From assembly GCA_032128375.1 (NCBI GenBank), contig JAQBGU010000003.1, positions 1-39,258 on the forward strand: DNA of 39,258 nucleotides, given 5' to 3'. Below the pieces are notes generated by a model. That model ran no database searches, was not told the origin of the DNA, and worked only from the letters and a program-made list of their open reading frames with translations. Below, piece after piece: positions 3,575 to 37,307 of the stretch. Made by a program: the position numbers and the translations under genes. The number at the start of each line of letters is the position of its first letter. The first letter of the stretch is position 1. The stretch comes from Deltaproteobacteria bacterium. Its GTDB lineage: Bacteria > Myxococcota_A > UBA9160 > SMWR01.

Positions 3575-3615
3575 GCTTCGACACTGCTTCGACGCTTCGA
3601 CGCTTCGACGCTTCG
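3575..3615. repeat. 8-bp gcttcgac tandem repeat between convergent genes
   Basis: Copies at 3575, 3586, 3594 and 3602, with a partial copy at 3610. Confidence 0.8.
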
Positions 3616-5703: not shown

Positions 5704-5815
5704 GGCGCGTCGACGATACGAGGTTGTGTCCGCGCTGTCATGACGCGAAGCGGAGCCTGTGTGGTAGGCTGGTTTCGACCCGCCCCGCTCCTCGTTCCTC
5801 TGTGGTTCCCAGTTC

Positions 5816-8210: not shown

Positions 8211-8312
8211 AGCCCTAACGTATCCTGACAGCACGCACGATGCCAAGCTCCGTGGTACCGTCGAGCCCTTCGAGGGGGACCAAGAGACGTGCGAGGGTGT
8301 AGCAACCCGATC

Positions 8313-8390
8313 AGAGCGGGCGGATGAGAGCGGGCGGATGAGAGTGGGCGGATGAGGGTGGGCGGATGAGTGTGCACGGATGAGAGTGCG
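8313..8390 (+). repeat. 14-bp tandem repeat (agagYgggcggatg) x5 ending at the amidase start codon
   Basis: Units start at 8313, 8327, 8341, 8355 and 8369, plus a partial unit at 8383. Confidence 0.9.
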
Positions 8391-9168
8391 GGAAGCGCTG
8401 GGTGTGGGTGTCGTTTGTTTGGCCGCAGCCGGCCTGCCAACGTCGAAGTCATGGCCGAAGGAGAGTCCGTCACCGAATCTCTTTGACATAGTCGTGATCG
8501 ACGCCGGACACGGCGGGGAGGACAAGGGCGCTCGCAGTTCAGCGGGACTGCTCGAAAAAGACCTGGTTCTCGATATTGCGAACCGAGTTGCCGAGAGCTT
8601 GCGCATGAGCGGGCTCAGCGTCGTGATGACGCGCAAAGACGACCGATTCATCGCGCTGGAAGAGCGAACTTCGATCGCCAACGACGCTCGGGGAGACCTG
8701 TTCGTGTCGATCCACGCGAACGCCACACCCGATCCGAAAATTCGCGGAATCGAGACGTTCTTCCTGGCTCTCGACGCCAGCGATGACTCCGCGTCAGCCG
8801 TAGCGACGCGAGAGAACCGGTCGTTCGGCGGCAGATCACGAAAACCGAGCGACGATGCGTTCATGGCGATGATCGGAGACCTGATCGTCACCGAGCACAT
8901 GGAGGAATCCAACGAGTTCGCGCGGCTCGCGCAGGCCGAACTCGCGATCGGATCAGCGGCCCGAGGTGTCAAGCAGGCTCCGTTCGTGGTACTCGAAGGG
9001 GTGCAGATGCCCTCTTCGCTGGTCGAGATCGGTTTCTTGACCAACCCTCAGGACGAGAAACTCTTGAGCGGCTCGCAGGGCAGGGATCGGATCGTCGCAG
9101 CGTTGGTTCGGGCAACTCTGGAATTCGGGCGTCGTTATGACGTTCGGCGTGGCGGCGGTAAACGCTAG
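8380..9168 (+). CDS. N-acetylmuramoyl-L-alanine amidase (Amidase_3)
   Basis: IDAGHGG, EKD, SIHAN and LVEIGFLTN motifs; N-terminal signal peptide. Confidence 0.93.
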   Translation: MRVREALGVGVVCLAAAGLPTSKSWPKESPSPNLFDIVVIDAGHGGEDKGARSSAGLLEKDLVLDIANRVAESLRMSGLSVVMTRKDDRFIALEERTSIANDARGDLFVSIHANATPDPKIRGIETFFLALDASDDSASAVATRENRSFGGRSRKPSDDAFMAMIGDLIVTEHMEESNEFARLAQAELAIGSAARGVKQAPFVVLEGVQMPSSLVEIGFLTNPQDEKLLSGSQGRDRIVAALVRATLEFGRRYDVRRGGGKR

Positions 9169-13999: not shown

Positions 14000-14686
14000 T
14001 TGATGGATTTTCTACAATGGCTCTGGTACGACGCGCTGCTGCGCGACGTGGTTGTGCTCGGCACCTATCTCGTGGCCGGAGGGTTGCTCGGCGTCTACGT
14101 GCGCACGCTGTATCGACGCTTTGCCGGTACCGTGTCGAATCGCGACAGCTTCAGCCGCTCGTTTCCACTGCTGACGCTGTCGACCATCCTGGTGATCTTC
14201 GTTGTGAAGTCCTCGTTGGCGCTTTCGCTGGGCTTGGTGGGCGCGCTGTCGATCGTGCGGTTTCGAGCGGCCATCAAGGAGCCCGAGGAACTCGTTTACC
14301 TGTTTTTCTGCATCGCGACCGGCCTCGCGATCGGGGCCGAATACTTCGCAGTGGCCGCGATGGGCACCGTCGTATTCACGGCCTTCGTTGTAGGCTCGCA
14401 CCGAGCCCGCGCTCGGCTCGCCGGCGGAGGCGACCAGTCGCTACTGCTTACGATCTCAGGCGAGCTCGCCGACATCGGCGCCGACTCGCAGCAGGTGATG
14501 CATCTGCTAGGTGAGGTGGCAGGCCCGTTCTCATTGCAGCGCTTCGACGTAGATGGAGGCCACGTCCAGTTGCGCGCGGTCATCGAGCCTCGCGGAGCGG
14601 ACGAGGTCGGTCCGATGTTGACGGCGCTGAGCGATCGCCTTCCGGCGTGCCGGATCTCGTACGTCAACCTCGAGAGCCTGCTCTGA
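14000..14686 (+). CDS. DUF4956 membrane protein
   Basis: Signature SSLALSLGLVGALSIVRFRAAIKEPEE; GAGGAG RBS. Confidence 0.88.
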   Translation: MMDFLQWLWYDALLRDVVVLGTYLVAGGLLGVYVRTLYRRFAGTVSNRDSFSRSFPLLTLSTILVIFVVKSSLALSLGLVGALSIVRFRAAIKEPEELVYLFFCIATGLAIGAEYFAVAAMGTVVFTAFVVGSHRARARLAGGGDQSLLLTISGELADIGADSQQVMHLLGEVAGPFSLQRFDVDGGHVQLRAVIEPRGADEVGPMLTALSDRLPACRISYVNLESLL

Positions 14687-14715
14687 GTCCGCGAGGCGCA
14701 AACGAAGTGAGTGCG

Positions 14716-15495
14716 ATGCAAACCCCGGGATCGAACGCAGTGCTCCGTCCGGCCGACTCGGGCGTCGGCTCGGCTTCCAGTGCGCCCGATGAAGTGACTG
14801 CGCAGCGCCGCGAGATGAAATTCGTTTTCGATGGCAGCCGCGTCGATGCGCTTCGCGATGTGCTCGAAGTAAACGCGCGCCGTATCGCCTTCGGCGACGG
14901 CCCGGTATCGCGGGTAAACAGCATCTACTTCGACGATCATCGGCTCAGCTCGGCCGCAGAGTCGCTGGCGGGTGTCTCGCGGCGCGTGAAGCTGCGGCTG
15001 CGCTGGTACGACGAGTCTTTCGCTCGCCGCGGACTGTTCTTCGAGGTGAAGCGCAGATCTGGACAGGTCATTTCGAAGGACCGCACGCCGTTGGAAGCGA
15101 CCGATGCGATCGATCGGATCCCCTACGACCAGCTCACAGCTTGGCTCAGCGAGGTGCTTGATCCGGAGACCGCCGCACGCTTGAACCTGCGCCCGATCCC
15201 GACCGCGCTCGTTTCATATCAGCGCGAGCACTTCCGCGATCGCGATTCGCCCATTCGACTCACCCTGGACTACCGGATCGAGGGCTTCAGCCAGCTGGGC
15301 CTGCAGCGGCCCGCCCGCCGGGCTGGCGTCGCGCTCGATCGCCTCGCGGTCGTCGAGGTGAAGACGCTTGCCGCGGACGAGCATCAAGTACGGCGTCTGC
15401 TGTTTCCGCTGAAGCCCCGGCTCGCGCGCTGCTCGAAATACGTGCACTGTTGTCTGGCCGATGGCCTGGGCGCTGCACTGCGCGCTACCGATTGA
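14716..15495 (+). CDS. VTC-domain polyphosphate polymerase-like protein (CYTH/TTM fold)
   Basis: RREMKF, SIYFD, KLRLRWY, FEVKRR, YQRE, RLTLD, VEVK and SKY motifs. Start is GTG 14707 or ATG 14716. Confidence 0.88.
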   Translation: MQTPGSNAVLRPADSGVGSASSAPDEVTAQRREMKFVFDGSRVDALRDVLEVNARRIAFGDGPVSRVNSIYFDDHRLSSAAESLAGVSRRVKLRLRWYDESFARRGLFFEVKRRSGQVISKDRTPLEATDAIDRIPYDQLTAWLSEVLDPETAARLNLRPIPTALVSYQREHFRDRDSPIRLTLDYRIEGFSQLGLQRPARRAGVALDRLAVVEVKTLAADEHQVRRLLFPLKPRLARCSKYVHCCLADGLGAALRATD

Positions 15496-15507
15496 GCGTG
15501 GCGCGCG

Positions 15508-16857
15508 GTGGGTGACCTTCGGCTCTACGGACCGTGGTTGGGCGGGTCCCTGTTGGTGCTCGCCGTGGTGGTGACGGGCTCGGTCATCACCGACCCGGTG
15601 CCGCCGCGCGAGCGCGGTCTGCCAGATCAACTCTTCGTCGCAGATGCGAAGCTGCGTCGGACACTGCGTTCCTTCGACCCGAGCGGTTTCGAGGACAAGC
15701 CTGTCGCTGTTGGCGGCGCGGGGATGTCGCTGAATCTGGAACTCGATCCCGACGAATTGTTGCTGCGCTTCGATAAGCGCAACCGCACTCGGCTCAAGCT
15801 GCGACGTACGGACGCATTCATCCAGTTTGGCGATGGAGGATACCTTCCAGCGACTGCGCGGTTGCGCGGCGCGACGACGCTGCGCAATGGCGACAAGCTG
15901 AATTTCGTGGTCGACTTGATCCGCGCGCAGCTGTTCGCCAGTGGGGTCGCCATGAAGAGGCTCCTCTTGATGGCAATGATTCACGATCCACACCAGATCG
16001 TGTCGTTGTTCGGTTACCGGATTTTCGCCGACCTCGGCTTGTATCCTACTGACGTGCAGTACGCGCGCCTGTCCCTGAACGGTGAGCCTCAGGGCATGTA
16101 CCTGCTGGTCGAGCCGCCCCTTGGGGGACTGCGCCGCCTGTATCCCGACCTCGTCGCACTGTACCGGAGGAAGGCGCTCGGGTTCTACAGCATCGCGTGG
16201 CAGAAGAAAGTTCCCGGTGTCGAAGCATCCATCACCGGCTTGCGCGAAATTCGGCGCCAGACGCAACTCGATGACCCGCTTGCGCAATACTCCGAACACA
16301 TCGATCTCGACGCGTATTTCCGCTACCTCGCGGCCAACACCATCTTGTTGAACGAGGACATGCAGGCGGAGCTGTTCTTCTACGAGCGCCGCGCCGACGT
16401 GTCGCATCCCGATCCCCTTCGGCTGATGGCCTGGGATCTCGAGGACATCGGATCCGCCGAGGGGAAGCCGGACGCAGTGGCGGACCCGCTGATCTTCTCC
16501 GGCCGCGACCGCATGGACTTTCACGCCCACGAGCAGCCTCGCCTGCGCGCCCGCTATCGGGAAGTGCTCGCAGAGTTACTTCACGAGGTGCTCACGCCCG
16601 AGTACATTTCGTCGCTGCTGCACACGGTTCGCATGCTGCGAGATGGTCTGGACGACGGTCTGCCCGAGTCGGTGCAGGCAGAGGCACGGCGCGCGCGGGC
16701 AACGTACGCCGCAGAACTGGAGGAACGTCTGCTCGCGCGTCACGCCGAGTTGGTAGGGTTGCTGGCATCGGCCACGGAGTCCGGCCGGCAAATCCCCGGC
16801 AGGCGTCCGGGCCACCCGATGGGTGCCCAACAGCTGGCCGCGGCTCGAACGGAGTAG
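15508..16857 (+). CDS. CotH-family kinase, membrane-anchored
   Basis: N-terminal TM; RLRGATT, LSLNGEPQGMYLLVE, IDLDAYFRY, N.D and WDLE motifs; adjacent to VTC and DUF4956. Confidence 0.78.
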   Translation: MGDLRLYGPWLGGSLLVLAVVVTGSVITDPVPPRERGLPDQLFVADAKLRRTLRSFDPSGFEDKPVAVGGAGMSLNLELDPDELLLRFDKRNRTRLKLRRTDAFIQFGDGGYLPATARLRGATTLRNGDKLNFVVDLIRAQLFASGVAMKRLLLMAMIHDPHQIVSLFGYRIFADLGLYPTDVQYARLSLNGEPQGMYLLVEPPLGGLRRLYPDLVALYRRKALGFYSIAWQKKVPGVEASITGLREIRRQTQLDDPLAQYSEHIDLDAYFRYLAANTILLNEDMQAELFFYERRADVSHPDPLRLMAWDLEDIGSAEGKPDAVADPLIFSGRDRMDFHAHEQPRLRARYREVLAELLHEVLTPEYISSLLHTVRMLRDGLDDGLPESVQAEARRARATYAAELEERLLARHAELVGLLASATESGRQIPGRRPGHPMGAQQLAAARTE

Positions 16858-16867
16858 AGATCAACGC

Positions 16868-18076
16868 ATGGCGAGGATCGCATCGTTGCCTGGCAGGCAT
16901 CGCCATTTTGCCATTTTCTTGCGCTCTCTCGGCGGCGGTGGGGGAGCCGAGCGCGCGATGGTCAATCTCGCCTGCCGCCTCGTCGAGTGCGGTCATCGTG
17001 TGGACCTCGTGCTGGGAGTTCGTGAGGGCGCGTTCTTCGATGAGATTCACCCGGATGTGAATTTGGTGATTCTGGGGCGGCGTAGCGCCTACGCGGCGTT
17101 GCCTCGGCTGTTGCGCCGGCCGGGTAGTGCCTGGCGCATGATCCCTGCGCTGATGCCGCCGAATCCTCACTGGGTGTTGGGGTGTATTCCCGCGCTCAGC
17201 GACTACCTGAAGCGCGAAGAGCCGGACGCCATGCTGTCTGCTCTGAACTATTCGAATCTCGCCGCGATCTGGGCCCACCGGCTCGCCGGCGTTCGAACCC
17301 GCCTGGTGGTGAGCGAACGCAACACATTGTCGCACCGTGCCAGCACTGGGCGTCGGAATCAACGGCTGCCTGGGCTGATCTCCTACTTCTATCCATGGGC
17401 CGATGGCATCGCAGCCGTTTCCGACGGAGTGGCGGACGACCTGGCGGAGACAACAGGTCTGCCGAGGGAACGAATCACCACCACCTACAATCCGGTCGTT
17501 TCGCCAGGTCTCGCCGAGCGCGCTGCACAAGCGGTCGACCACCCGTGGTTGTTCGACGATTCGGTCCCGGTCATTCTCGCTGCGGGCAAACTACGCGAAC
17601 AGAAGGGCTTCGATACGTTGATTGCGGCATTTGCGATGCTGAGGAATCAGCGGGCCGCGCGTCTGCTGATTCTTGGCAGCGGCGAGTTGCAGGTTGCGCT
17701 GGAACAACAGGTGCGCGCTGCTGGCATCGACCGAGACGTGGAGTTCTGCGGATTCGTCGAGAATCCATTCTCCTATATGTCTGCGGCCTCGCTATTCGTG
17801 CTGTCTTCCCGCTGGGAGGGTTTGCCCGGGGTGCTGATCCAGGCGATGGCGTGTGGCTGTCCCGTCGTGAGTACCGATTGCGCGAGCGGACCCAGAGAGA
17901 TTCTCGGCGACGGTGTCGGGATCCTGATACCGGTCGACGATCCGTCCGCGATGGCCGAAGCGATGGCGTGTGCGCTCGATGCGCCGAGAGATTCGGCGCG
18001 CCTCGTCGAACGCGCGCAACGCTTTTCGGTCGAGCGTTCTACTGCATTGTATGCGGATCTCTTGTCAGGCACGTAG
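16868..18076 (+). CDS. GT4-family glycosyltransferase
   Basis: GGGAER, SERN, AVS.GV, GKL..QKG and SSRWEGLPGVLIQAMACG.PVV. Confidence 0.92.
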   Translation: MARIASLPGRHRHFAIFLRSLGGGGGAERAMVNLACRLVECGHRVDLVLGVREGAFFDEIHPDVNLVILGRRSAYAALPRLLRRPGSAWRMIPALMPPNPHWVLGCIPALSDYLKREEPDAMLSALNYSNLAAIWAHRLAGVRTRLVVSERNTLSHRASTGRRNQRLPGLISYFYPWADGIAAVSDGVADDLAETTGLPRERITTTYNPVVSPGLAERAAQAVDHPWLFDDSVPVILAAGKLREQKGFDTLIAAFAMLRNQRAARLLILGSGELQVALEQQVRAAGIDRDVEFCGFVENPFSYMSAASLFVLSSRWEGLPGVLIQAMACGCPVVSTDCASGPREILGDGVGILIPVDDPSAMAEAMACALDAPRDSARLVERAQRFSVERSTALYADLLSGT

Positions 18077-18198
18077 ACGGCTCGCCCAGTGAAGAACCTC
18101 ATCTCCAACCCGTCACTGGTGGCTAGATTCACATCATGGCCCTCTTGGATACCGAGCTCGTCGAGCAGTTCGAAGCAAACGCAGCGCTCGAGGTGGGC

Positions 18199-18897
18199 GT
18201 GACCCGCGCGTGGCAGGTGGTCGAGCGCATTGACGGCCCAGACGGCTGTCTCGAGTTGCGTCGCCGGGGTGACCGCGACTTCTTGATCGCGCTCGACCGG
18301 CGCGTATTGATGAACGCCATGGCGAGCCGCTCCGAAAAAGCGCTGGGGCGAGCCGCCGCAGAATCGACTGCGGGTTCCAAGTCGCCGCAGGTACTGATCG
18401 GCGGCCTGGGCATGGGGTTTACGCTGCGCGCTGCGCTCGACGTGCTGCCAAACGATGCGCGCGTTTTCGTCGCAGAGATCGAACCCGCGGTGGTTCGCTG
18501 GTGCGAAGGCCCGCTCGCTGCACTGACCCAGGCTGCGGTCGCCGACCCGCGCGTCGAAGTGGCGATCACAGACGTGGCCGAGACGATCCGGCATAGCGAC
18601 GGCCGCTTCGACGTGATCGCGCTCGACCTCTACGAGGGTGTCCGGCTTCCGAAACGCGGTACCCAAGACCCCTATTACGGCGACGAGGCGCTGCGCGTGA
18701 TGTGCCGAGCGCTGCGCGTCGGCGGCAGTTTTGCGCGCTGGTGCGAACAGGCTGACTCCAGGTTCGAGCGTCGACTCGCTCGCGCAGGGTTCGAGTTCGA
18801 GCGCCGCAGTGCCGGGCGCGGCGGACGCAAGCACGCTGTCTACCTCGCTCGCCTGAAGTCGCGCCGCGAGCGACAGCCTCAACCCGTTTCGAACTAG
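18199..18897 (+). CDS. Spermidine synthase-like SAM-dependent methyltransferase
   Basis: LELRRRG..DFLI, VLMN, VLIGGLGMGFTL, AEIEP.VVRW and FDVIALD. Likely start GTG 18199 (ORF track gives 18136). Confidence 0.8.
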   Translation: MTRAWQVVERIDGPDGCLELRRRGDRDFLIALDRRVLMNAMASRSEKALGRAAAESTAGSKSPQVLIGGLGMGFTLRAALDVLPNDARVFVAEIEPAVVRWCEGPLAALTQAAVADPRVEVAITDVAETIRHSDGRFDVIALDLYEGVRLPKRGTQDPYYGDEALRVMCRALRVGGSFARWCEQADSRFERRLARAGFEFERRSAGRGGRKHAVYLARLKSRRERQPQPVSN

Positions 18898-25039: not shown

Positions 25040-27427
25040 TCAACCGCTCGCGGGCAAGGCTACCATGGAAACGCGGTTCACACGGCTCGGTTGACGCTCG
25101 GGTGGTCGCTCCGGCTCCACCGAGGAGCCGCCGACCGAATCCGCGAAGTCGATGTAGATCGGCGATGACCAGGCCCGTTCGCGGGCTTCGCTCAGACAGT
25201 CGTCGTCTCGATCCGTTTCGAAATTCTGATGGCACGCGTCGACCGCAATGCACTCGCCTTGCTGGTCGAGCGTGCAACGCAGCCCCCCGGCGTTGATGAT
25301 CTGGCTGGGCTCCTCGAGCACGCGCACGTAGTAGACCGAGTCGCGCGCGAAACTTTTGTCGTCGAATTCGACCACGCAGCCGGACGGATCGCGCGGACAA
25401 TCGAAGCTGCGCCACGGGTCCTCGATCAAGGAGGCCACCGGTTCGTTCGGCGTCTGCTGTGGGCGAATCCGGACGACCTCGACCCGGTCGATCCGGCGCC
25501 GATTCTCGCCTGGGAAATCACACTCGTCTGCGCACAACGCGCCGATGCGATCGGGGCCCAATGCGTACAACGCGTAATCCGGACAGCCGGGGCGTTGTAC
25601 CAGAGAGCCCGCTGCGCGCACTCGGAACCGCGGGGTGTCGATCATGGCCAGTTCGGAACCCATCGGCGCGCTGTGATCGGCGTTCACCCCGTGTGGAGTG
25701 GGCGGGTTGATCAGGTCGAACCAGAGCAGAATTTTCGTGCCGCTGGTCGCGTAGACCTCGCGACGTTTCAGCCCATCCCAAATCGAGCGTCGGTCGCGGC
25801 CACTGGTATGGACTGCGGTGAGCCCGCCAGCGCTGAGGAACGAACTGGTGCGCTCGATTTCGAAGCTTCCCAATCCACCGAAGCTGCCGGCTTCGAGGGG
25901 TTGGCTGGCAATCCGGTCGCCTCCGCGTCCAAGCACCGTGTCGAGCGCTGCGGGCGTCTCGAACTTCAGCCCGTCGACGAAGAAATTTCGGTTGAGCTGC
26001 TTGTAGCCGATGCCGGGTTTCGCCTGGTGGCCATCGCTCGCGGCGACGAAGCCGAAGCGTGTGCGCTTGGGTCGCGTATCTAGTTCGGCCGCGCGGGTCT
26101 CGTTCGCATCGCCGGTCTTGTCGGCTGCGCGAAAGTGCGAGATCGCTGCCACGTACTGTACCGAATTGCCCGGCCGGTGATTGAATGCCGGCAAAAAACA
26201 GTCACGACACTGTCCGGAATCGAGCCAGTCGTCGGGACGTTGGCCCGGCACGACTTGGAACCCCCGAGTCCCGGTATCGACGTAGCGTTGGCGAGTCAGC
26301 ACCGCTCGCTGCTCGCAGACCTGCGCATTTCCGCCCGCCGCCGTGCAGCGCTCGCGCATGATCTCGCCGGCACGCCAACACGAGGGCAGGTAGTCGGGGC
26401 GCGGTGCGGGGCACTTCGGCGAACCGTCGGCTGCGGTCACGACGGACCGCCAATCGCGGTATTGCTCGGCGCTGCCGTGCCCCGAATAGACTTCGAACAG
26501 CGTTTGCAGCGCGGGGTCGTCCTGCTCGGTCCCCAGCTGTTTGTCCCAGCTCGAGCCGAGCGGCGTATAGAACCCCCAGCTGGTGCCATGCGGGATGACG
26601 ACCGAATCGCCTCCCCATTCGCGCAGCTTCCGAAACAGCACGGCCGGTGTCGGCGCGATTTCGCGACAATTTCCGGGCAATTCGCTGGTATGGACATCTT
26701 CCGCACAAACGGGCACTTCACTGCGGTCCTTCATGTAACGCGCGAAGTCGAAGTAGCGCTGAGGGGAACGCTCGAGATCGAGCAGCGCGAGGGCGCCGGG
26801 CCCGCTGGCGCCGCCGACCGCGAGCGCGATGGGTTCGGCGATCGGCCGCTTCGGAACGAGGTCGCTGGCCGTTTCCAACAGCACGATGTTCTTGTGGCCG
26901 TAGTGGCTGGCGGCCGTTTGACCGACCTGCGTCCATTCCCAGCCCAGGAACGAAACCAGGTCGGGTCGCTCCGGATCGCCGGAGCGCGCATTGCAATCTC
27001 GGATCGACTGCTGTGTTTCGTGCCAGTGTTCGGGGGTCAGGTTCGAGGCGTGATCATTGATCGACCAGAAGTCGAGCCCCGCGCAATAGCGCGCGAAATC
27101 GCAGGCATCGGCCGGCGGGTGTGCGCCGGTGCCGCCGAAGATCGGCAGGCTGGACGCGAACGCATCGGTCGAAAAAGTCGTGTGGACGTGCAGGTCGCCG
27201 AACAAGATCTGGCGCCCCCGCGGCACGCCCAGCGCAGCGGCGCGGGCACCGCGCGCAGCTTCGCGGCCGAATACGATGCCATTGGGAATGGCCTCGCCGC
27301 GAATCTCGCCGGGACCTTCGTGCTCACCGAGCAGGCCCCAGGAGATCTGGTACAGCATCCACAACGCGACGGCTGCGAACGCGACTGCTGCCAGCGCGAG
27401 TCGTTTCAACGCCAGCGCGGTAGCCAA
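25040..27427 (-). CDS. DUF3604 (PHP-like metallohydrolase), membrane-anchored/secreted
   Basis: FGDLHVHTTFSTDA, NDH, GWEWT, IPHG, SDGH, EVYATSG and ERAWSSPI. Confidence 0.85.
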   Translation of the reverse strand: MATALALKRLALAAVAFAAVALWMLYQISWGLLGEHEGPGEIRGEAIPNGIVFGREAARGARAAALGVPRGRQILFGDLHVHTTFSTDAFASSLPIFGGTGAHPPADACDFARYCAGLDFWSINDHASNLTPEHWHETQQSIRDCNARSGDPERPDLVSFLGWEWTQVGQTAASHYGHKNIVLLETASDLVPKRPIAEPIALAVGGASGPGALALLDLERSPQRYFDFARYMKDRSEVPVCAEDVHTSELPGNCREIAPTPAVLFRKLREWGGDSVVIPHGTSWGFYTPLGSSWDKQLGTEQDDPALQTLFEVYSGHGSAEQYRDWRSVVTAADGSPKCPAPRPDYLPSCWRAGEIMRERCTAAGGNAQVCEQRAVLTRQRYVDTGTRGFQVVPGQRPDDWLDSGQCRDCFLPAFNHRPGNSVQYVAAISHFRAADKTGDANETRAAELDTRPKRTRFGFVAASDGHQAKPGIGYKQLNRNFFVDGLKFETPAALDTVLGRGGDRIASQPLEAGSFGGLGSFEIERTSSFLSAGGLTAVHTSGRDRRSIWDGLKRREVYATSGTKILLWFDLINPPTPHGVNADHSAPMGSELAMIDTPRFRVRAAGSLVQRPGCPDYALYALGPDRIGALCADECDFPGENRRRIDRVEVVRIRPQQTPNEPVASLIEDPWRSFDCPRDPSGCVVEFDDKSFARDSVYYVRVLEEPSQIINAGGLRCTLDQQGECIAVDACHQNFETDRDDDCLSEARERAWSSPIYIDFADSVGGSSVEPERPPERQPSRVNRVSMVALPASG

Positions 27428-27909
27428 CGAGTCGCGAGGTGCGCGCCCGCCAGTGCGGACACGCCGCCCAAGGTGTCGAGAAGCACATCGGACGTCGCGC
27501 CCATCCGATCAGACGATTGGGCTTGTCGCCATTCGTCGACAGCGGCCACGGCCACCACGACCGCCACGCTCGAGAGCGCACTGCTCCATCTCGACCAGCC
27601 ATAGCTCAAGCGCCAGGCGCGAATACACAACAGGGCGAGGATCCCGTACTCGACGACGTGCGCTGCCTTGCGGATTGCGAACTGGACCGAACTGAGCCAG
27701 TCGGCGCTGGACTCGGGGAACAACCAGTGCAGTAGCGGGCCCAGCAAGCGCGAGGTCTCGCTGTTGGAAAAATGGTCGCCTCCAAGCGACTGAATCATTG
27801 TGATCCACAGCGCGACGCATAGCCACGCAACGCCGCGCGAGGTGGGGGGGGCCGCAGGGAGGGGCGCCGAAGATTTTCGCGCCTGTTGCGGCAATTCGAC
27901 GGACCCCAT
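27406..27909 (-). CDS. VanZ-family membrane protein
   Basis: IRKAAHVVEYGILA, DEWRQ...R.G and DV.LD motifs. Likely start ATG 27909. Confidence 0.82.
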   Translation of the reverse strand: MGSVELPQQARKSSAPLPAAPPTSRGVAWLCVALWITMIQSLGGDHFSNSETSRLLGPLLHWLFPESSADWLSSVQFAIRKAAHVVEYGILALLCIRAWRLSYGWSRWSSALSSVAVVVAVAAVDEWRQAQSSDRMGATSDVLLDTLGGVSALAGAHLATRWLPRWR

Positions 27910-27966
27910 CGCGGCGCAGCATAGCCGACGCCGATCGCCTCGATGGCGGGGTATCCTGTCGCGTTG

Positions 27967-30207
27967 ATGACACAGCTCTCCATCGGACTCGTCTACGACT
28001 TGCTCGGCTCTTACCCTCGGCAGCGGGCAGATCCTCCCGATGTCGATGCGGAATATGAGCCTGAGGAGACGGTTTGCGCACTCGAGGCCGCGATTCGATG
28101 GCTCGGCCACAAGCCGGTGCGAATCGGCAACCCGGATGCGCTGTTGGCCCGCATCGGCAAAGGCGATTTGCCCGCACTCGATGCTGCGCTGAACATTGCC
28201 GAAGGGCGCGGCGGACGGAACCGTGAGGCGTGGGCGCCGGTCCTGTTGGAGATGGCGGGCATTCCGACGCTCGGTTCCGATGCGCTGACTCTGTCGCTGA
28301 CGCTCGACAAGGCCTGGGCGTTGACGCTGGTCGCAGAGGCCGGCGTTCCGGTCCCAATGCGCTGCGTGCTCGAATCCTCGAACCAGGCAAAAAACGTTGT
28401 ACTACCGGGGCCGTTTCCGCTGTTTGTGAAACCGAGATGGGAAGGAACTGCCAAAGGCATCAGGCGGGCCTCGAAGGTCGCGGATCGCGACGAGCTGGCG
28501 CGTGAGGTCGGGCGTATTCGCGAAACCTACAACCAGCCTGCGCTGGTCGAAGAGTTTCTGCCGGGTGCCGAGTACACGGTAACCGTCGTTGGGAACGACC
28601 CACCGCGTGCGCTGCCGGTGATTCAGCGCGCGCTGGACGCGGCGACCGGAATCGGGATTCACGCGATCGACGCGGAAGCACCGCCCGAGGGATTCCGTGC
28701 GGTCGTGCCGGGCGAGCTGACTGCGACGCTCGAAGCCAGCCTTGCCGAGCTCGCGGTGCGCGCTTATTCAGCGCTGGATTGCGTGGACTTCGCGCGCGCT
28801 GACTTCAAGTTGGACCGCTGCGGTGAAGTGAGATTTCTCGAAATGAATCCGCTTCCGACCTTCGCACCCGACGGTACGTTCGGTGTCCTCGCCGAACTCG
28901 AGGGTCGCCCGCTCGAGGCACTGCTCGGCGAAGTCATTGCGGCGGCGCTGGTGCGTCTTGGACTTGAAGGGGAAGGATTTCACAGGGAAGGATTTGACGG
29001 GGAAGGATTTCACGAGAAAGGGTTTCACAGGGAAGGATTGCGCGGGAAGGGGTCGCGATGGGCAGGGCTTCGAGCTGAGCACGTCGCGGCGGACCCTGCG
29101 CCGGCAGCGGCTGCAATGAGTGCGGCCGGGACAGGCAGCGATGAACGCGACTGGGGTTGGCAGATGCGCAACCGCATCCGCACGGCGAACGATCTGGAGC
29201 GCTACGTCCGGACGACGCCCGATGAGCGGCACGCCATCGATGCGCTGGCCGACCGCTTCCATTTCGTGATCACGCCCTACTACGCATCGCTGATGGACCC
29301 GGACGACCCGGAATGCCCGATTCGCAAGCAAGTCGTGCCGCGCAGCGCGGAACTCGACGACCCGGTCGGGTGGGATCCACTCGATGAAGTCGAGCACTCG
29401 CCGGTCAAGAACGTGATTCGGGTCTACCCCGATCGCATTGCATTCTGTGTGAACAACGAATGCGCGCTGTACTGCCGCTTTTGCCTGCGCAAGCGCATGG
29501 TCGGCGAACCGGACTGGACGATGAAAAAGCGCGAGCTGAGCAGCGCGCTCGACTGGATCCGCAGAACACCGGAAATCCGCGATGTGTTGTTGACCGGCGG
29601 TGATCCGCTGGTGTTTTCGGACGACCGCCTCGAATGGTTGCTCAGCGAGCTGCGCGCGATTCCCCACGTCGAGATCATCCGGCTCGGCACGCGCTTGCCG
29701 GTCACGCTCCCCTACCGCGTAACAGATGAGTTGTGTCGCATGCTCGAACGCTTCCATCCGATCTGGGTCAACACCCACTTCAACCATCCCAAGGAACTCA
29801 CCGAACAGGCGGCAGAGGCCTGCGATCGCTTGACGCGAGCCGGTATCCCGGTCGGCAACCAGAGCGTGCTGATGCGCGGCATCAACGACAGCGTCGAGGT
29901 GATGAAGGAACTCTGCGAAGGACTCGTGCGATTGCGGGTCCGGCCGTATTACTGCTACCAGGCGCAGATGCTCGAGGGCACCGGCCATTTTCGCGTGCCG
30001 ATCGAACGCGGACTCGAGATCTTTCGCTCACTGCGCGGTCGTACCAGCGGTTTTGCGATCCCGCTGTTCGTGCTCGATACGCCGTACGGAAAGGTCCCTG
30101 TCACCTATCCTTACTATCGCGGCCGGGAGGGCGACGAGGTCGTCGTCGAGAGCTTCGACGGCAGAATCTGGCGCGAGCCCAACTCACTCGATGATGGCCC
30201 GTCGTGA
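27967..30207 (+). CDS. Fusion: D-Ala-D-Ala-ligase-like ATP-grasp domain + KamA-family (lysine 2,3-aminomutase-like) radical SAM domain
   Basis: One uninterrupted frame. N-half has NIAEG..GRNRE, GSD..TL.LTLDK, VKP.WEG.AKGI, EEFLPG.EYTV and FLEMNPLP. C-half has W.WQ..N.I, ITPYY, CALYCRFC, LTGGDPL, RLGTR.PV, THFNHPKE, NQSVL..GIND and PYGKVP. Confidence 0.88.
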   Translation: MTQLSIGLVYDLLGSYPRQRADPPDVDAEYEPEETVCALEAAIRWLGHKPVRIGNPDALLARIGKGDLPALDAALNIAEGRGGRNREAWAPVLLEMAGIPTLGSDALTLSLTLDKAWALTLVAEAGVPVPMRCVLESSNQAKNVVLPGPFPLFVKPRWEGTAKGIRRASKVADRDELAREVGRIRETYNQPALVEEFLPGAEYTVTVVGNDPPRALPVIQRALDAATGIGIHAIDAEAPPEGFRAVVPGELTATLEASLAELAVRAYSALDCVDFARADFKLDRCGEVRFLEMNPLPTFAPDGTFGVLAELEGRPLEALLGEVIAAALVRLGLEGEGFHREGFDGEGFHEKGFHREGLRGKGSRWAGLRAEHVAADPAPAAAAMSAAGTGSDERDWGWQMRNRIRTANDLERYVRTTPDERHAIDALADRFHFVITPYYASLMDPDDPECPIRKQVVPRSAELDDPVGWDPLDEVEHSPVKNVIRVYPDRIAFCVNNECALYCRFCLRKRMVGEPDWTMKKRELSSALDWIRRTPEIRDVLLTGGDPLVFSDDRLEWLLSELRAIPHVEIIRLGTRLPVTLPYRVTDELCRMLERFHPIWVNTHFNHPKELTEQAAEACDRLTRAGIPVGNQSVLMRGINDSVEVMKELCEGLVRLRVRPYYCYQAQMLEGTGHFRVPIERGLEIFRSLRGRTSGFAIPLFVLDTPYGKVPVTYPYYRGREGDEVVVESFDGRIWREPNSLDDGPS
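28966..29070 (+). repeat. In-frame 15-bp purine-rich repeat (xxEGF) x5-7 in the fusion linker
   Basis: gaaggggaaggattt cacagggaaggattt gacggggaaggattt cacgagaaagggttt cacagggaaggattg, then two degenerate units. Confidence 0.88.
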
Positions 30208-31760
30208 GCGATGCATCGGAGCAAGAGCGATCGACCGGTCTTGCCGCCGCCGCGGTGCTGCTGGCGCTCAGTGCGGCGCTGTCTCGGTTACTCGGCTTGG
30301 TTCGCGAGCGAGTCATCGCACACCAAATCGGTGCCACCCAGCAGGCCGACGCTTATGGCGCGGCGTTCCTGATCCCCGACATCCTGAACTATTTCCTGGC
30401 TGGGGGCGCGCTGGCAATCGCGTTCATTCCGCTTTACTCGAGCGTGCGTGCGCGGTCCGGCGACGCGGCCGCCGGGGCTTTGTTCGCCAGCGTATTCGGG
30501 ACGATGAGTGCTGGCGCTGTGGTTGCGACCGCGATCCTCTGGTGGCAGGCGGAGCCGTTGGTGGGGGTTTTCTTCGCAGGTTTCGACCCCGACACACAGC
30601 TGATGACGGTGCGGCTGGTGCGGATCCTGCTCCCCGCGCAGATCTTCTTCGTAGCAGGGGGGATCTTGCGCGCGGTCTTGATGGCACGAGGCCGGTTCGC
30701 GAGCCAGGCGCTCGGACCGCTGATCTACAACGTCGGGATCATCTTGGCGGGGGGCATGTGGGGATCCCGCTTTGGCGCCGAGGCGTTTGCATGGGGTGCA
30801 TTGGCGGGCGCGGCGGTGGGTCCATTCGCGATTCCGATGCTCGAGGTCTGGCGCGACCCAGAGCTGCGCCCGCGCGTTCGCATCGCGCCGCTCGACCCCA
30901 TGCTGCTGCGTTACTTGGCGATGGCTGCACCCATCATGCTCGGCGTCAGCCTACTCACGGTAGACGAGTGGTACGACAAGTATTTCGGCGCCGGCCTCGC
31001 GGAGGGAACGGTCGCATACCTCGGCTACGGACGCAGGTTGGCCCAGGTACCCGTGGGTGTGATCGGGCAGGCCGTTGCGACGGCGGCCCTTCCCACGCTG
31101 TCGCGGCTGTGGGCGGCCGGCGATCGCGAGCAGCTCGATCGGATCTTGTCGACGACGCTTCGCACTGGCTTGGGGCTCGGGGTTCTGTGTGCGGCCGGAT
31201 TGTTTGCGTTTGCGCACCCGGTCGTCGTAGTGATCATGGAGACGGGTCGATTCGGCGCCGCCGACAGTGACCGGGTAGCGGGGCTGGTGGCGATCTTTGC
31301 GGTAGCTGTCCCCGCGTGGATCGTGCAACAGATTGCGGTGCGCGCCTTCTATGCGCGAGGTCAGATGTGGTTCCCGATGTTTCTGGGGACCGGGATCGCG
31401 CTGGCGTTCATTCCGCTGTATGTGGTGCTCGGGACCGACGCTGAGGGGCTCGCTAGCGCAGGCGCGATCGGTATGACGACGAGTGCACTGGCCACGCTGG
31501 GGTTGGCGCGCGTGCGTCACGGTGGGCCGCCGCTCGAGCCGATCGCTTCGAGTGCTGCGAGATCACTGCTCATCGCGGGTGTTGCGGCGGCGGTCGGCGC
31601 ATGGGCGGGTGGATGGTTCGAAAGCGCACTGGCGACGCTGGCATCCGGTGGCGCGGTCTTCGCGCTGGTGTGCGCGCTCGGGGTGTGGTCGATCGGCGAC
31701 GGGCCGTTGCGCGAAGCATTGTTGCGAGCGGCAAAGCGCGTCACCGGGCGCTCCGGATGA
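30204..31760 (+). CDS. murJ: Lipid II flippase MurJ (MviN)
   Basis: [18 protein letters not shown]..., GAL..AFIP, RRL.Q.P.GV.G and RAFYA; GTGA overlap with the upstream fusion. Confidence 0.9.
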
Positions 31761-31767
31761 ACCCCCG

Positions 31768-34700
31768 ATGAGCTGGGAGTTCTGGATCGATCGGGGCGGG
31801 ACGTTTACGGACTGCATCGGGCGCGACCCCGATGGCGCTCTGCATGTGTGCAAGCTGCTGTCTTCGGACACGGCGCCGGTCGAGGGAATTCGCGCGATTT
31901 TGCGGAGGGCAGGCGTACTCGAACCGGACGCAGCGGTTGCTCCCTGCCGCGTGCGCCTGGGAACGACCGTGGCGACCAACGCGCTGCTGGAGCGGCGCGG
32001 GGCGCCTACGCTGCTCGTTGCGAGCGAGGGGCTCGGCGATGTGCTCGAGATCGGCACCCAACAGCGACCCGAGTTGTTCGCGCTCGCGATCGCGAAGCCG
32101 GCACCGCTACACCGCCAAGTGATCGAGGTCGCGGGTCGCGTCGACGTTGCCGGCGAGCGCCGAACGCCGTTCGACGCCGCTGCAACGCGGGAGGCGCTGG
32201 TTGGCGCGAAACGGGACGGCATCGATTCGGTCGCGGTGAATCTGATCCACGCATACGCGTTTGCGGACGACGAGATCGCGATTCGCAAAATTGCCGATGC
32301 ACTCGGCTTTGGTTACGTGAGTCTCTCGCATCAGGTGGCGCGTGAGATGGGGTTTTTGGCAAGAGGTGAGACAACATGTGTTGACGCCTACTTGACGCCA
32401 CTTTTGAGAATTCACGTGAAGGAATTGAGCGCAGCGCTGCCCGGCTCCGATCTGCGCTTCATGCAGTCTTCTGGCGGGCTGACCGACGCCGCACGCTTCA
32501 AGGGTCCCACAGCACTGCTTTCCGGGCCGGCCGGCGGGGTCGTGGGGGCGGCCAAGGTGGCGGCAGCCGCGGGTTTCGACCGCGCGATCGGCTTCGATAT
32601 GGGAGGGACGTCGACTGACGTTTCGCTGTTGCGCCGTGGCCAGCTCGAACGCTCGTTCGAAACACTGATCGGTGGCGTGCGGGTCAAGGCTCCGATGCTG
32701 CGTGTGCACACGGTGGCGGCCGGAGGCGGATCGCTGTGTCGCTTCGATGGAATCCGGTTGCTGGTGGGGCCACACAGCGCGTCGGCCCGGCCCGGTCCGC
32801 TGTGTTATGGCCAACCCGACGCGCGCGAACTGACGCTGACCGACTGCAACTTCGCGCTGGGACGGATCCAGCCCGATCGATTTCCGTTCCCGTTGGTTTC
32901 AGAGCCAGTCGAAGCGGCGCTATCGACGATGGTCGCGAAGTTGGCGGCTGAAGGTCACGAACTCGACCGCGATGCTGTGGCGGCCGGTTTTTTGGAAGTG
33001 GCCAATGCCTGTATGGCGGACGCGATCGCCGAGGTGTCCGTTGTTCGCGGCGTGGATCCGAGGGACTGCGCGCTGGTCGGGTTCGGCGGCGCGTCGGGCC
33101 AGCACGTGTGCGCGATCGCCCGGTCGCTCGGAATTCGCACCGTGCTGTTGCACCCCTTTGCCGGGATCTTGTCCGCGTACGGAATCGGCATGGCGGACGT
33201 GAGCTGGGATGGGCAGCGCGATGCGGGGCGCGTCTTGCTCGGTTCGATCGCCGCTGCTGCAACCACATCGCTTCCCGCATCCGTTGCCGATCGACTCGAC
33301 GAACTCGAGCGACAGGGCCGCGCCGCCATCGCCGCCGAGGCGCCGGACGCCGAAGCACCGCTCCGTATCGAACGGCTCCTCGATCTGCGCTACCGGGGTA
33401 CCGAGACGCCATTGAGTGTCGCGGAGCCCGACACCGGCAATTTCCAAGCGGCCTTCGAGGCCGATCACCAGACGCGTTTCGGCTACACGCGCCCGGGCCG
33501 ACCGGTGGAAATCGTGACGGCGCGAGTGAGGGTCACGGTCTCGCGAGAAGCCTCGAGCGGTTCCTCGAAAGAGCCCTCGAGCGGGTCCTCGAAAGAGCCG
33601 ACGAGCGGGTCCTCGAAAGAGCCCTCGAGCATCCCCTCGAAAGAGCCGTCGAGCATCCCCTCGAAAGAGCAGGTCGAGTCGCCTCGGAAACCAGACCCGT
33701 TCGCGGTTGTGCCGGAAGCGCTGCGCGTACAAAGGGTCTGGTTCCCAGGACTCGGCCGAATCGCCGTACCCGTGTACGACCGCAGCGCACTCGAGCCCGG
33801 CTGCGAATTTCGCGGGCCCGCCGTGGTGCTCGAAGACACTGGGACGTTGATTCTCGATCCGGGCTTCAGCGCCCATCTCGGCGCCGAACAGATTCTGGTT
33901 CTGACCGACGAAACCGGCGCTCGCCGCGCAGAAGTCATCGACTACTCGCGCGCTGACCCCATCCGGCTCGAGGTCTTCGGCAACCGGTTCATGTCGATCG
34001 CCGAACAGATGGGCGGCGTGCTGCGCAATACCTCCGTATCGACCAACATCAAAGAGCGACTCGACTATTCGTGTGCGGTGTTCGACGCGAGCGGTGGCCT
34101 GGTCGCCAACGCGCCACACATTCCTGTGCATCTCGGCGCGATGGCGGAGACCGTTCGCCATGTCCGATTGCGGTTTCCCGGACTGGGTCCCGGTGATGTC
34201 GTCGTCACCAACGATCCGGCGGCCGGTGGTTCGCACCTTCCCGACGTAACGGCCGTCACACCCGTCTTTGCAAAAGATTCCTTCGAGAATTCCTTTCCGG
34301 GTCATGACGACGGCTCGGCCCCGGACTCTGACAGCCACCCCGCGCCAGCCTTCTTCGTTGCGAGCCGCGGTCACCACGCCGATATCGGGGGAGTGACGCC
34401 GGGTTCGATGCCGCCGGATTCTCATTCATTGGAAGAAGAAGGCGTTGTGCTCGAAGCTTTTCTCGCGGTTCGCGCCGGGCGCTTCGACGAACAGCATCTG
34501 CGCGAGCGGCTGACGGGCGCGCGCTACCCGGCGCGAAATCCAGACGACAATCTGGCGGAGATCGAGGCGATGGTTGCCGCGAACCGCTGCGGAGAGCGGC
34601 TGCTCGAGGAGATGATGGCCGAGCACGGTCGCCCGGCGATCGAGATGACGATGGCGCAACTCCAGCGCGCTGCGGCGCAGAAGGTGGGCCGAGAAATTGG

Positions 34701-35637
34701 ACGCCTGCCCGACGGCCGCTTCGAGTTCGCCGACCAGATGGACGATGGCACACCGGTCTGCGTGGCGCTGACGATTGCTGGGCAGCGCATGCTGATCGAT
34801 TTCTCCGGCACCGGTGCGGCGAGCCGCGGCAACCTCAATGCGCCCGGCGCGGTCGTGCAGGCCGCAGTGATCTACGTTCTGCGCGCGCTGGTAGCAGAAC
34901 GTATCCCGCTCAACGGCGGCTGCTTGGAGCCGGTCGAGATTCGGATCCCACCAGGCTCGCTGCTCGACCCGCCGGCGGGTTCCGCGGTGGTAGGTGGCAA
35001 CGTCGAAACATCGCAACGCATCGTGGACGTACTGCTCGGAGCGCTTGGGCGGGTAGCGGCGAGCCAGGGAACCATGAACAACGTGGCGTTTGGCGACGAG
35101 ACTTTCGGCTATTACGAAACGATCGGAGGTGGGGCTGGCGCGGGCGACGGCTTTGCCGGCGCGTCGGGCGTCCACACCCACATGACCAATACCCGGATCA
35201 CCGACGCGGAAGTGCTGGAGGCCAGGCATCCGGTGCTGCTGCGCGAGTTCCGGCTGAGGCGCGGGTCGGGCGGAAACGGACACTGGCCGGGCGGAGACGG
35301 GTTGGTTCGCGAGTACGAATTCCGCGCGCCAGTCACTGTCTCGTTGCTGACCGAGCGGCGAACCACGCAACCCTACGGGCAGCGAGGGGGCGAGCCGGGA
35401 ATGTCGGGCCGTAACAGCGCGATTCGAACCGACGAAACGGTTACACCGCTTCCCGGCAAGGCACGGATTGAAATGGCGAGCGGCGAGCGCCTGCGAGTCG
35501 AGACGCCCGGAGGCGGCGGCTTCGGCGAAGTGGATCGGTCCCCAGCGGAGCGCGCAGGTTCGCAGGTGTCGACACGGACGGGTCGCCGCACTGCGCTCGG
35601 CGAGGGTTGCGAGACGCGACCGCGCTCCGTACTGTGA
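31768..35637 (+). CDS. ATP-dependent 5-oxoprolinase / hydantoinase A-B fusion
   Basis: [68 protein letters not shown] and TPGGGG. Start ATG 31768. Confidence 0.93.
33551..33670 (+). repeat. 24-bp in-frame repeat x5 ([16 protein letters not shown]) inside the oxoprolinase
   Basis: Units start at 33551, 33575, 33599, 33623 and 33647, all ending cctcgaaagagc. Confidence 0.92.
35607..35635 (+). promoter_or_regulatory. Putative sigma70 promoter for tRNA-Lys
   Basis: TTGCGA-N17-TACTGT ending 11 nt before the tRNA. Confidence 0.45.
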
Positions 35638-35724: not shown

Positions 35725-35784
35725 GTAGTTCGGCGTAGTTCGGCGTAGTTCGGCGCAGTTCGGCGTAGGTCGGCGTAGGTCGGC
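35725..35784. repeat. 10-bp tandem repeat gtagttcggc x6 directly after tRNA-Lys
   Basis: Three copies of gtagttcggc, one gcagttcggc and two gtaggtcggc. Confidence 0.92.
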
Positions 35785-36080
35785 GCGTATTCGCGAGTCG
35801 ACGCCTGTTCGGTGGCTTTCTTGCGGCGCCGGCGGAGTGATCGCGGCGTGCGGCCGCGAGAACTCTCTGGTTCGAAATCGGCGGGGGCGGCGTCGACCAC
35901 TCGCCGTGCGAACCCGAATCGATCGGAACGTCCATCTCTGCTTGCATGCCAAAGGAAGGCGAATTGCAGTTGAACGAGTCGTACACCGCGCTCGATACTC
36001 TCGAATAGGTTTGCACTGTTCTGCGCCGAAGCGGTGGCGCGCATGTGCTTACGCTCGGTTTTTTGCGAAGATGATTCCGC

Positions 36081-37307
36081 ATGCGCCGAACCGATCGGTT
36101 CAGACCTTCGCGCCACCAGACGGCACTGCTCGGGGCACTTCTCGTTGCAACGGCGCTCGGCGCCTGCAAGCACGACGTCTACCCGGACTTCAATCCGCCC
36201 ATCGTCTGTTCGACCCGAGCGGCCATCGAACGGTCCGTCTTCTTCATCGGCGACGCGGGTGCGCCGGAGCTACCCGACACCCCGCCGGGGTCTGCCGACA
36301 CCCTCGTCGACCCGGTGCTGACCGCACTGCGGCGCGACGTGGCGGAGCGGGTCGCCGAGCTGGGTGCGGAGCGCACGGCCGTCGTCGTACTGGGTGACCA
36401 TATCTACCCGGCGGGCATCGGGCTTCCGGGCGAGCCGGGTCGCGCACAGGGTGTTCGCGTGCTCGAGGCGCAGATCGCGGCCATCGGCGAGGCGCAGGGC
36501 CTGTTCACGCTGGGAAACCACGACTGGGACCAGGGAAGCTCGGGGCGAGGCTGGGAGGTCGCGAACGCCCAGGTGGCGTTCCTGGGTTCGCGCGCGTCCA
36601 ACATCTCGGTCCACCCGTCGGACACCTGTGCGGGCCCCGAAGTGGTCGACTTCGGCGAGTCGCTTCGCTTCGTGTTCATCGACCTCTGGGCAGCTGTCTA
36701 CCAGACCGACAATCCGGACAGTCAAACGCAGTCTCACTGTCGTCTGGAAGCCGGCGAGGGGAGGATCGCCAAGAAGGTCGTTGATATTTTCGCAGACTCT
36801 GCGGACCGCAAGCTGACCCTCGTGACTCACGCGCCGATGATGACGAGCGGTCCTCATGGCGGCTATTTCCCGTGGCGCGAGCACGTCTTTCCGCTGCGCG
36901 TCTTCCACCGCGATCTGTGGATCCCCTTGCCCGCGATCGGCTCGATCTTTCCGCTGGCGCGAATATTGGGAGTCACTGACACGGAAATGATGAGCGCGAC
37001 CTACCAGGCGTACATCGACAGCGCGAAGGCGATCTTTCGGCCCGGCATGCCGGCACTTGTCGCTGCAGGCCACGAGCACAGCCTACAGCTGCACGTCGAC
37101 CCCACGGGCGTGATGCACGCTGTGAGCGGGGCGGGCAGCGCGAGCAGGGTCGACTTCGTCCGCCAGATGAACTCGGACTTGATGTCGCTGGCAAGGCCGG
37201 GCTACATGCGCCTCGACAGCTACGTGGACGATAAACTGCGGCTCGATGTCCTGGCGCTCGACGACGACATGCAGCGCAGGTTCGTGTACAGCACCTGCAT
37301 TCCGTAG
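36081..37307 (+). CDS. Calcineurin-like metallophosphoesterase lipoprotein
   Basis: Lipobox LGAC; GDAG, GDHIYP, GNHDW, THAP and GHEH motifs. Confidence 0.85.
   Translation: MRRTDRFRPSRHQTALLGALLVATALGACKHDVYPDFNPPIVCSTRAAIERSVFFIGDAGAPELPDTPPGSADTLVDPVLTALRRDVAERVAELGAERTAVVVLGDHIYPAGIGLPGEPGRAQGVRVLEAQIAAIGEAQGLFTLGNHDWDQGSSGRGWEVANAQVAFLGSRASNISVHPSDTCAGPEVVDFGESLRFVFIDLWAAVYQTDNPDSQTQSHCRLEAGEGRIAKKVVDIFADSADRKLTLVTHAPMMTSGPHGGYFPWREHVFPLRVFHRDLWIPLPAIGSIFPLARILGVTDTEMMSATYQAYIDSAKAIFRPGMPALVAAGHEHSLQLHVDPTGVMHAVSGAGSASRVDFVRQMNSDLMSLARPGYMRLDSYVDDKLRLDVLALDDDMQRRFVYSTCIP

Follow-up and report, generated by a model that had tools for sequence, protein, structure and literature searches.

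Few substrates are assigned to the KamA class of radical S-adenosylmethionine (SAM) aminomutases; among the curated models tested here they are lysine, glutamate and arginine. By annotation, the blasticidin S cluster carries BlsG, an arginine 2,3-aminomutase, two genes away from an ATP-dependent carboxylate-amine ligase. The ligase presumably attaches beta-arginine. KamA-like and ATP-grasp genes are adjacent as pboF-pboG in the Pbo cluster of Pseudomonas syringae (PMC8473136), and in the AblA/AblB system a beta-amino acid is made and then capped as an amide, giving N-epsilon-acetyl-beta-lysine (PMC1224877). Here we describe a stretch of 39,258 nucleotides from a Deltaproteobacteria bacterium of the UBA9160 lineage (contig JAQBGU010000003.1, positions 1 to 39,258; hereafter the window), in which one forward-strand gene (27967..30207) joins a Ddl-like ATP-grasp ligase to a KamA-family aminomutase. 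This gene is a genuine fusion, under selection and evolved several times, of the two genes of an uncharacterised pathway, with members of the KamA and ATP-grasp families, and the changed pocket of its aminomutase is a more telling feature than the fusion. The aminomutase clade is found in most genomes sampled of an uncultured order, has passed to other phyla and is tied to an unstudied Ddl-like ligase. Public labels such as 'lysine 2,3-aminomutase' or 'D-alanine-D-alanine ligase' mislead for such proteins. With the whole two-step pathway in one gene, a single expression and an amino-acid panel could name a new substrate and amide product. Neither the fusion nor the clade was found described in literature on KamA with ATP-grasp or Ddl, in a search to which phrases with '2,3-' were unmatchable and most subscription papers and bioRxiv supplements were external; the accessible portions of PMC8473136 and PMC12361552 describe neither the fusion nor the Gln293 clade.

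The only solved relative by sequence, the lysine 2,3-aminomutase of Clostridium subterminale (KamA/AblA, 2A5H; E = 2e-118), is also the top fold match (46% identity). Its CX3CX2C motif, Arg134, Asp330 and Lys337 recur in the source domain, which differs in Asp293 to Gln, Thr133 to Leu, Leu118 to Ala and Arg112 to Val, in a pyridoxal phosphate (PLP) loop two residues shorter and in missing the C-terminal 50 residues; moreover, it is fused or paired with a ligase and not with an acetyltransferase. BlsG has the same short PLP loop, two residues below the lysine enzyme, but Thr133/Asp293/Thr330 where the source has Leu/Gln/Asp; the blasticidin S ligase is barely like the source ligase (25% identity over 173 residues, E = 8e-4), and there are no nucleoside genes in the source. 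Glutamate 2,3-aminomutase (TIGR04368) shares fold and cofactors, whereas its Gln133/Lys293/Asn330 and long loop are missing from the source domain. Ddl and Van ligases share the fold (Z 25-29) and the ATP, metal and acyl-phosphate residues, but the Ddl N-terminal domain is not matched in the source ligase and the FYDYEAKY loop aligns with source IHAIDAEA. The second enzyme of the AblA/AblB pathway is an acetyltransferase and the pathway's substrate is lysine. The genes pboF and pboG, likened to this locus by description only, are separate genes in a larger nonribosomal peptide synthetase cluster, with a ligase modelled on an L-amino acid ligase.

No stop codon lies between either ATG 27943 or ATG 27967 and the TGA at 30207; the second start, which agrees with relatives in the protein alignment, gives 746 residues, and the first 754. 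Pfam matches comprise Dala_Dala_lig_C (residues 135-324), Radical_SAM (497-645) and LAM_C (688-739). The ligase domain (27967..28965, from catalytic residues, model and fold match) is followed by a disordered linker (28966..29115, from the repeat and low model confidence) and by the aminomutase domain (29146..30192, from profile and structure matches), all on the forward strand. In the whole-chain structure model both domains have high confidence, residues 338-388 have a predicted local distance difference test score (pLDDT) below 50, the predicted template modelling score (pTM) is 0.51, and the best fold matches are 2A5H, at the top, and Ddl enzymes. The linker holds a 15-base tandem repeat at 28970-29050 (5.5 copies, encoding (R/G)EGF(H/D) units) with an Ala-rich stretch after it. 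An earlier note on this DNA, made from the letters alone, had described just such a stop-free frame uniting the two domains through a repeat- and Ala-rich linker; its further description of the KamA domain as complete holds for the catalytic part, but the match to the 416-residue Clostridium enzyme stops at residue 363 of the latter. As the note also pointed out, an in-frame ATG overlaps an out-of-frame TGA (29116..29119, TGA at 29117-29119, forward strand), resembling the stop/start overlap of split relatives; the overlap is not preserved in a same-genus fusion (L031) and may therefore be chance. An internal start at 29116 was rejected, as that fusion lacks it.

The note had raised two concerns, a one-nucleotide indel in the linker and relatives that all have two genes. 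Run X1 may be the source sample, and its contigs cover 27800-28995 and 28970-30400 without a single difference or gap; in run X4, another strain from the same study, 30 linker bases are missing and the frame is kept. No single contig crosses the linker repeat and the number of 15-base units is uncertain, yet every number would stay in frame. End-to-end, stop-free fused matches occur in 4 of 61 genomes, the source genome counted (G000, G001, G009 and G023), and full-length fusions in the same order account for 27 of the 120 protein clusters listed (99-100% query cover, 41-85% identity). Both halves are under purifying selection: measured against a same-genus genome at a dS of 0.7-0.8, the ratio of nonsynonymous to synonymous substitution rates (dN/dS) comes to 0.13 in the ligase half and 0.075 in the aminomutase half. 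Because of the open frame, two confident folds, purifying selection, the in-frame deletion in X4 and the fused relatives, we conclude that the fusion is real and not an artefact.

The aminomutase half combines retained cofactor residues with an altered pocket (three-letter residues are in 2A5H numbering, one-letter residues in that of the fused protein). By alignment, the CX3CX2C motif (C499, C503 and C506) with L507 (Thr133) and R508 (Arg134) lies at 29461..29490, Q667 replacing Asp293 at 29965..29967, and D704 (Asp330) to K709 (the PLP Lys337) at 30076..30093, all on the forward strand, the last enclosing a loop that lacks two residues relative to the lysine enzyme and matches BlsG in length. 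Hence Cys125/129/132, Arg134, Asp330 and Lys337 are retained, and the changes are Val112, Ala118, Leu133, Gln293 and the shortened loop before Lys337. In the lysine enzyme we take Arg134 to be the substrate-carboxylate residue and Lys337 the PLP lysine, with Asp293 and Asp330 presumably gripping the side-chain (epsilon) amine of lysine. The domain passes the KamA-family model TIGR00238 (335-338 bits against a cut-off of 199) and fails TIGR03820 for lysine 2,3-aminomutase (443.5 against 525.4), TIGR04368 for glutamate 2,3-aminomutase (444 against 650, narrowly the highest family score), TIGR04468 for arginine 2,3-aminomutase BlsG (419 against 600), TIGR03821 for EpmB (237 against 369) and TIGR03822 for AblA-like 2 (312 against 396); six other Gln293 proteins likewise fail all the specific cut-offs. 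By the tests run, the aminomutase is neither a lysine, a glutamate nor an arginine enzyme.

A pocket survey of 303 aligned KamA-like proteins, gathered with this query, near-duplicates included and no census, gave 270 that could be scored. Leu or Phe133 with Gln293, Asp330 and the short loop is found in 139, and Ala118, Arg134 and Lys337 are present in 139/139 of these; the other patterns are Thr/Asp/Asp, as for lysine (76), Gln/Lys/Asn (7) and Thr/Asp/Thr with a short loop (3). Controls show that positions 133, 293 and 330 track substrate: one Thr/Asp/Asp protein passes the lysine cut-off, a Gln/Lys/Asn protein (P0166) passes the glutamate cut-off, and two Thr/Asp/Thr proteins are annotated as BlsG. 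From these patterns we infer that the Gln293/Asp330 clade has a distinct aminomutase specificity, for a substrate whose side chain is probably neutral and hydrogen-bonding. Our first guess, glutamine giving beta-glutamine, is a tentative one, more apt to be wrong than right; it is made because Gln293/Asp330 would be a donor-acceptor mirror of the Lys293/Asn330 of the glutamate enzyme and would suit an amide. The next candidates are citrulline, arginine and N-acylated lysine or ornithine, which the roomier Ala118 and the BlsG-like short loop would favour. Beta-glutamine is a known solute in Methanohalophilus (PMC1224877). More distant KamA relatives were also seen (L130, L133, L139 and L147) with no ligase match in the locus, of which L130, L133 and L147 have His293 and a short loop.

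The ligase half is, by its fold and its ATP, metal and acyl-phosphate residues, a predicted ATP-grasp carboxylate-amine ligase. Catalytic K115, K155, E202, R277, D279, E292 and N294 are invariant in 50/50 aligned ligases (E195 in 49/50), as are the family-specific D25, E29, T35, E79, R84, R86, E87 and K163. Modelled alone, the domain has a pLDDT of 95 and a pTM of 0.92, and its best folds among 48,161 chains are Ddl enzymes (Z 28.9, root-mean-square deviation 3.0, 301 residues aligned), with RimK and LysX/ArgX at Z 23. It fails TIGR01205 (89.8 against 245.65) and PRK01372 (104.9 against 243), and scores far below all the Van models listed. The GGxSxEH start, HG and the omega loop YEAKY, which we take to be the D-Ala-D-Ala ligase motifs and which are present in the source genome's own Ddl, are replaced by YDLLGSY, EG-RNRE and HAIDAE. 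By the tests run, the ligase half is not a Ddl. The source genome's Ddl, judged ordinary by its motifs, is a lone gene elsewhere (contig C50, 43530-44825). A role for the fused ligase as a Ddl replacement was rejected, given this normal Ddl and the Ddl N-terminal domain in 5/5 Rhodothermota genomes tested. The cell-wall cluster of the source genome (C107:131849-137500) has no Ddl match behind murB, where the next long open reading frames (ORFs) presumably resemble ftsQ, ftsA and ftsZ. Q220-R221, G230 and H232 are found in 47/47 ligases paired with Gln293 enzymes and in 0/3 paired with lysine-type enzymes; they are a clade mark and not a rule, because distant Gln293 fusions bear other loops. 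An Atlas search returned generic Ddl-family names only, and no new partner domain was seen in longer ligase relatives among the 120 matches listed. All 120 (P0301-P0420) are ATP-grasp-only proteins of 671-735 residues and 31-40% identity, many from Myxococcota (Anaeromyxobacter, Archangium and Stigmatella), which are probably two tandem Ddl-like ligases.

For this pair of genes, fusion is the rarer arrangement. Among the best 80 of 575 matched genome loci, most of them from Myxococcota metagenome-assembled genomes (MAGs) including UBA9160, 2 are fused, 66 are split and 12 lack the ligase; in 4 of these 12 the upstream sequence is shorter than 300 bases, and the genomes of the remaining 8 have a ligase elsewhere (57-65% identity). 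The earlier note's remark that kamA-like and ddl-like genes occur as separate neighbours in some bacteria is thus borne out in 66/80 loci, and in 49/66 split loci the ligase stop and aminomutase start overlap by four bases. Two loci (G052:C53:1449-3761, L005/L106, and G466:C77:4870-7065, L274) have the two genes in the same frame with a single TAG between them, a possible pre-fusion step. Among 61 relatives tallied, both genes are present in 50, the ligase only in 5 (2 partial), a partial aminomutase only in 1 and neither in 5. In a 151-genome sample of the source phylum the close pair occurs only in the source order. Both genes are present though unlinked in 6/6 Rokubacteria-type and 2/2 marine genomes first checked and in 3/3 further ones. 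Another 151-genome sample, from the phylum to which a Rhodothermales MAG belongs, holds 13 genomes with a close aminomutase; 12 of these also have a close ligase, unlinked in 4, and a close ligase alone occurs in 0/151. In the Rokubacteria phylum (121 genomes) the aminomutase is present in 5, of which 4 also carry the ligase. Because kin are not independent, these counts describe rather than test. Plasmid searches gave nothing nearer than 60% identity.

The fusion has several origins. A tree was built from 44 concatenated pairs, picked from 109 to span a larger tree. In it the five fused rows of the source group together (100/100) and join three split pairs (97/95); a second clade (100/100) consists of six other fused rows, and P0015 pairs with a split pair (100/99). 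A single origin for all 14 Myxococcota fusions, a group set by trait after the first tree had been seen, is rejected by the approximately unbiased (AU) test (p-AU 2.8e-8). Two fully supported clades are observed, together with singletons that could reflect assembly errors. Fusions also occur at greater distance, and some KamA-ligase fusions run in the opposite order and have lysine-type pockets. Across 15 fused proteins the linkers are unrelated low-complexity sequences of 13-89 residues. The 15-base repeat is missing from the sister fusions and peculiar to the source genome, which has 371 strong tandem arrays, and is a late insertion; as the cause of the fusion it was rejected, there being no net frameshift within it and no copy in the sister fusions. 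In the second fused clade (L003:2497-2640 and L065:1567-1657; proteins P0006-P0014) the linker holds a recurring GC-rich element, GREAAAQRAAGERS, also found elsewhere in L003, L020, L087, L279 and L049, often in both orientations; it is a dispersed repeat, like a repetitive extragenic palindrome, translated in frame, with no match in the source genome. The fusion itself is ordinary evolution; in most relatives two genes carry out the same task. Conserved catalytic residues, repeated fusion, coupled pairs and unlinked co-occurrence give good support to a single pathway served by the aminomutase and ligase, and the co-occurrence in particular suggests a shared pathway. The bifunctional aminomutase-ligase that the earlier note proposed therefore stands as a one-pathway pair, but not as a special architecture with its own chemistry.

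Going beyond the observed frame, domains, residues, selection, co-occurrence and repeated fusion, we infer a chemistry, substrate, order of steps, product and role, and favour with moderate confidence the following scheme. The fused enzyme would convert a neutral, hydrogen-bonding amino acid, with glutamine as the first guess, into a beta-amino acid and join the latter to an amine. The KamA half, with SAM, a 4Fe-4S cluster and PLP, would move the amino group of the L-amino acid from C2 to C3; the ligase half would use ATP to phosphorylate the carboxylate of the beta-amino acid and then couple it to the amine. The product would be a small beta-aminoacyl amide or dipeptide that stays in the cytoplasm as a protective or storage solute, and the linker would provide stoichiometry and proximity only.

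Several observations weigh against this scheme. Some Gln293 fusions (P0022, P0027 and P0029-37) have ligase loops of the kind seen beside lysine-type enzymes. The aminomutase has been cleanly lost, with the ligase intact, from G018, G034 and G005 (completeness 96, 87 and 88%), which retain ligase-murJ-oxoprolinase, the ligase having a dN/dS of 0.20 between two of the three; the ligase, kept after three clean losses, may therefore be useful without the aminomutase. Conversely, no close ligase was found in the fragmented, aminomutase-bearing genomes G213, G313 and G032 (the last 83% complete). Record titles place the carriers in soil, fresh water and the sea, and the genes conserved around the pair include no transporter, regulator or salt-linked gene.

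The order of steps could be reversed, which we think unlikely though it deserves the most weight among the alternatives. Acylation by the ligase would come first, at a side-chain group such as the epsilon-amine of lysine or a gamma-carboxyl; the aminomutase would then isomerise the alpha-amino-acid end of the conjugate. The loss of the Asp293 acid to Gln, Leu118 to Ala (in 139/139 proteins with the signature) and the shorter loop agree with a side chain that is larger and uncharged; such a pocket would suit acylated lysine, which makes this order a candidate. The ligase is also the first gene of the operon and outlasts three clean aminomutase deletions. However, the same ligase family precedes lysine-type (Asp293/Asp330) aminomutases in 6 loci (L134, L135, L137, L141, L164 and L177), the aminomutases without a found ligase in three fragmented genomes leave the asymmetry of loss not established, and gene order says little on reaction order.

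Only slightly less weight, and still a doubtful standing, goes to a cell-wall role, in which the ligase would add the beta-amino acid to a peptidoglycan precursor, by an alternative MurF dipeptide or by side-chain addition of the kind made by D-aspartate ligase, and MurJ would flip the product. The Ddl fold agrees with it, as do the neighbours. The sole murJ match of the source genome (30204..31760, forward strand) overlaps the fused gene's stop by GTGA; in targeted searches of the 80 loci, murJ lies within 600 bases behind the pair in 56/68 loci with room, and it still adjoins the ligase where the aminomutase has moved or been lost. In one Rokubacteria family the ligase is right behind a second murB in 11/21 genomes (L212-L216; G061:C13:62937-63938 and G063:C8:1870402-1871403), and in two Rhodothermota genomes a DgcA/dipeptide-epimerase-like gene, below family cut-offs, is directly upstream of the ligase. 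Against this, each association is confined to one lineage; Ddl and MurF of the usual kind are encoded in the source genome, and all five Rhodothermota tested have the Ddl N-terminal domain; two Rokubacteria have the second murB and neither ligase nor aminomutase; and 9/11 Rhodothermota regions show no neighbour of this kind among the ORFs inspected or scanned, a subset of all ORFs. Furthermore, the block cstA-vanZ-ligase-kamA-murJ-oplA-tig is syntenic across the source order, so that adjacency to murJ is expected, and the neighbours were chosen after the fact. A fuller version is slightly less probable again: the Gln293/Asp330 clade would have a new specificity, for glutamine, citrulline or a ligated conjugate, and the ligase would build the resulting beta-amino acid into cell-wall precursors of Myxococcota, Rokubacteria and Rhodothermota that are uncultured; we know of no such beta-amino acid as a peptidoglycan building block. 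The second murB of the Rokubacteria family lies outside the cell-wall cluster and is followed by the ligase and then a carboxymuconolactone-decarboxylase-family gene, and the same Rokubacteria (L199-L203 and L208) have a second cassette of two Ddl-like ligases and then a more distant KamA-like gene.

It is improbable that the operon is shared by history only, with the fusion a tolerated accident of the four-base overlap in a repeat-rich genome. The minority state of the fusion, the small frameshift that would suffice, the random linkers, the many tandem arrays and the ligase outliving the aminomutase in three genomes would all be expected from such an accident, but it would take a shared pathway to account easily for unlinked co-occurrence in two distant phyla and for fusions in either order, and a near-neutral fusion is itself compatible with the favoured scheme of aminomutase followed by ligase. 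An assembly error within the repeat that merged two genes is very improbable indeed, since, although contigs end inside the repeat with none crossing it and X1 may be the source sample, four sister sequences with differing linkers are also fused and strain X4, different by 30 bases, is still in frame.

The fused gene is flanked by a divergent VanZ-like gene (27406..27900, reverse strand, start approximate), matched in 37/80 loci, and, beyond murJ, by a hydantoinase/5-oxoprolinase-family gene (31768..35637, forward strand), a frequent downstream neighbour in the source order only; the latter was rejected as a pathway member, being present in 35/57 loci and restricted to that order. No GNAT gene, the neighbour expected of a beta-lysine acetyltransferase system, was found among 36 window ORFs scanned, both flanks included. 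Promoter and terminator scans gave counts at chance level (1 against 1.1 and 6 against 7.2). Other KamA fusions (P0210, P0280, P0205, P0159, P0172 and P0177) involve an LD-carboxypeptidase (S66), the phosphotriesterase family, an intein with a LAGLIDADG domain, and GNAT domains. Further short tandem arrays in the window, at 659-698, 3586-3615, 8309-8388, 33551-33686 and 35725-35785, lie between and inside genes, one of them within the oxoprolinase gene. Elsewhere in the window are, on the reverse strand, a 982-residue protein with trypsin-like and vWA domains (3625-6573) and a lactate-racemase-family gene with a long N-terminal extension (6885-9044), and, on the forward strand, a series of DUF4956, VTC-domain, CotH-kinase, GT4 glycosyltransferase and spermidine-synthase-like genes (14000-18897) and a 408-residue ORF (36081-37307) with no Pfam match and one paralogue on contig C166.

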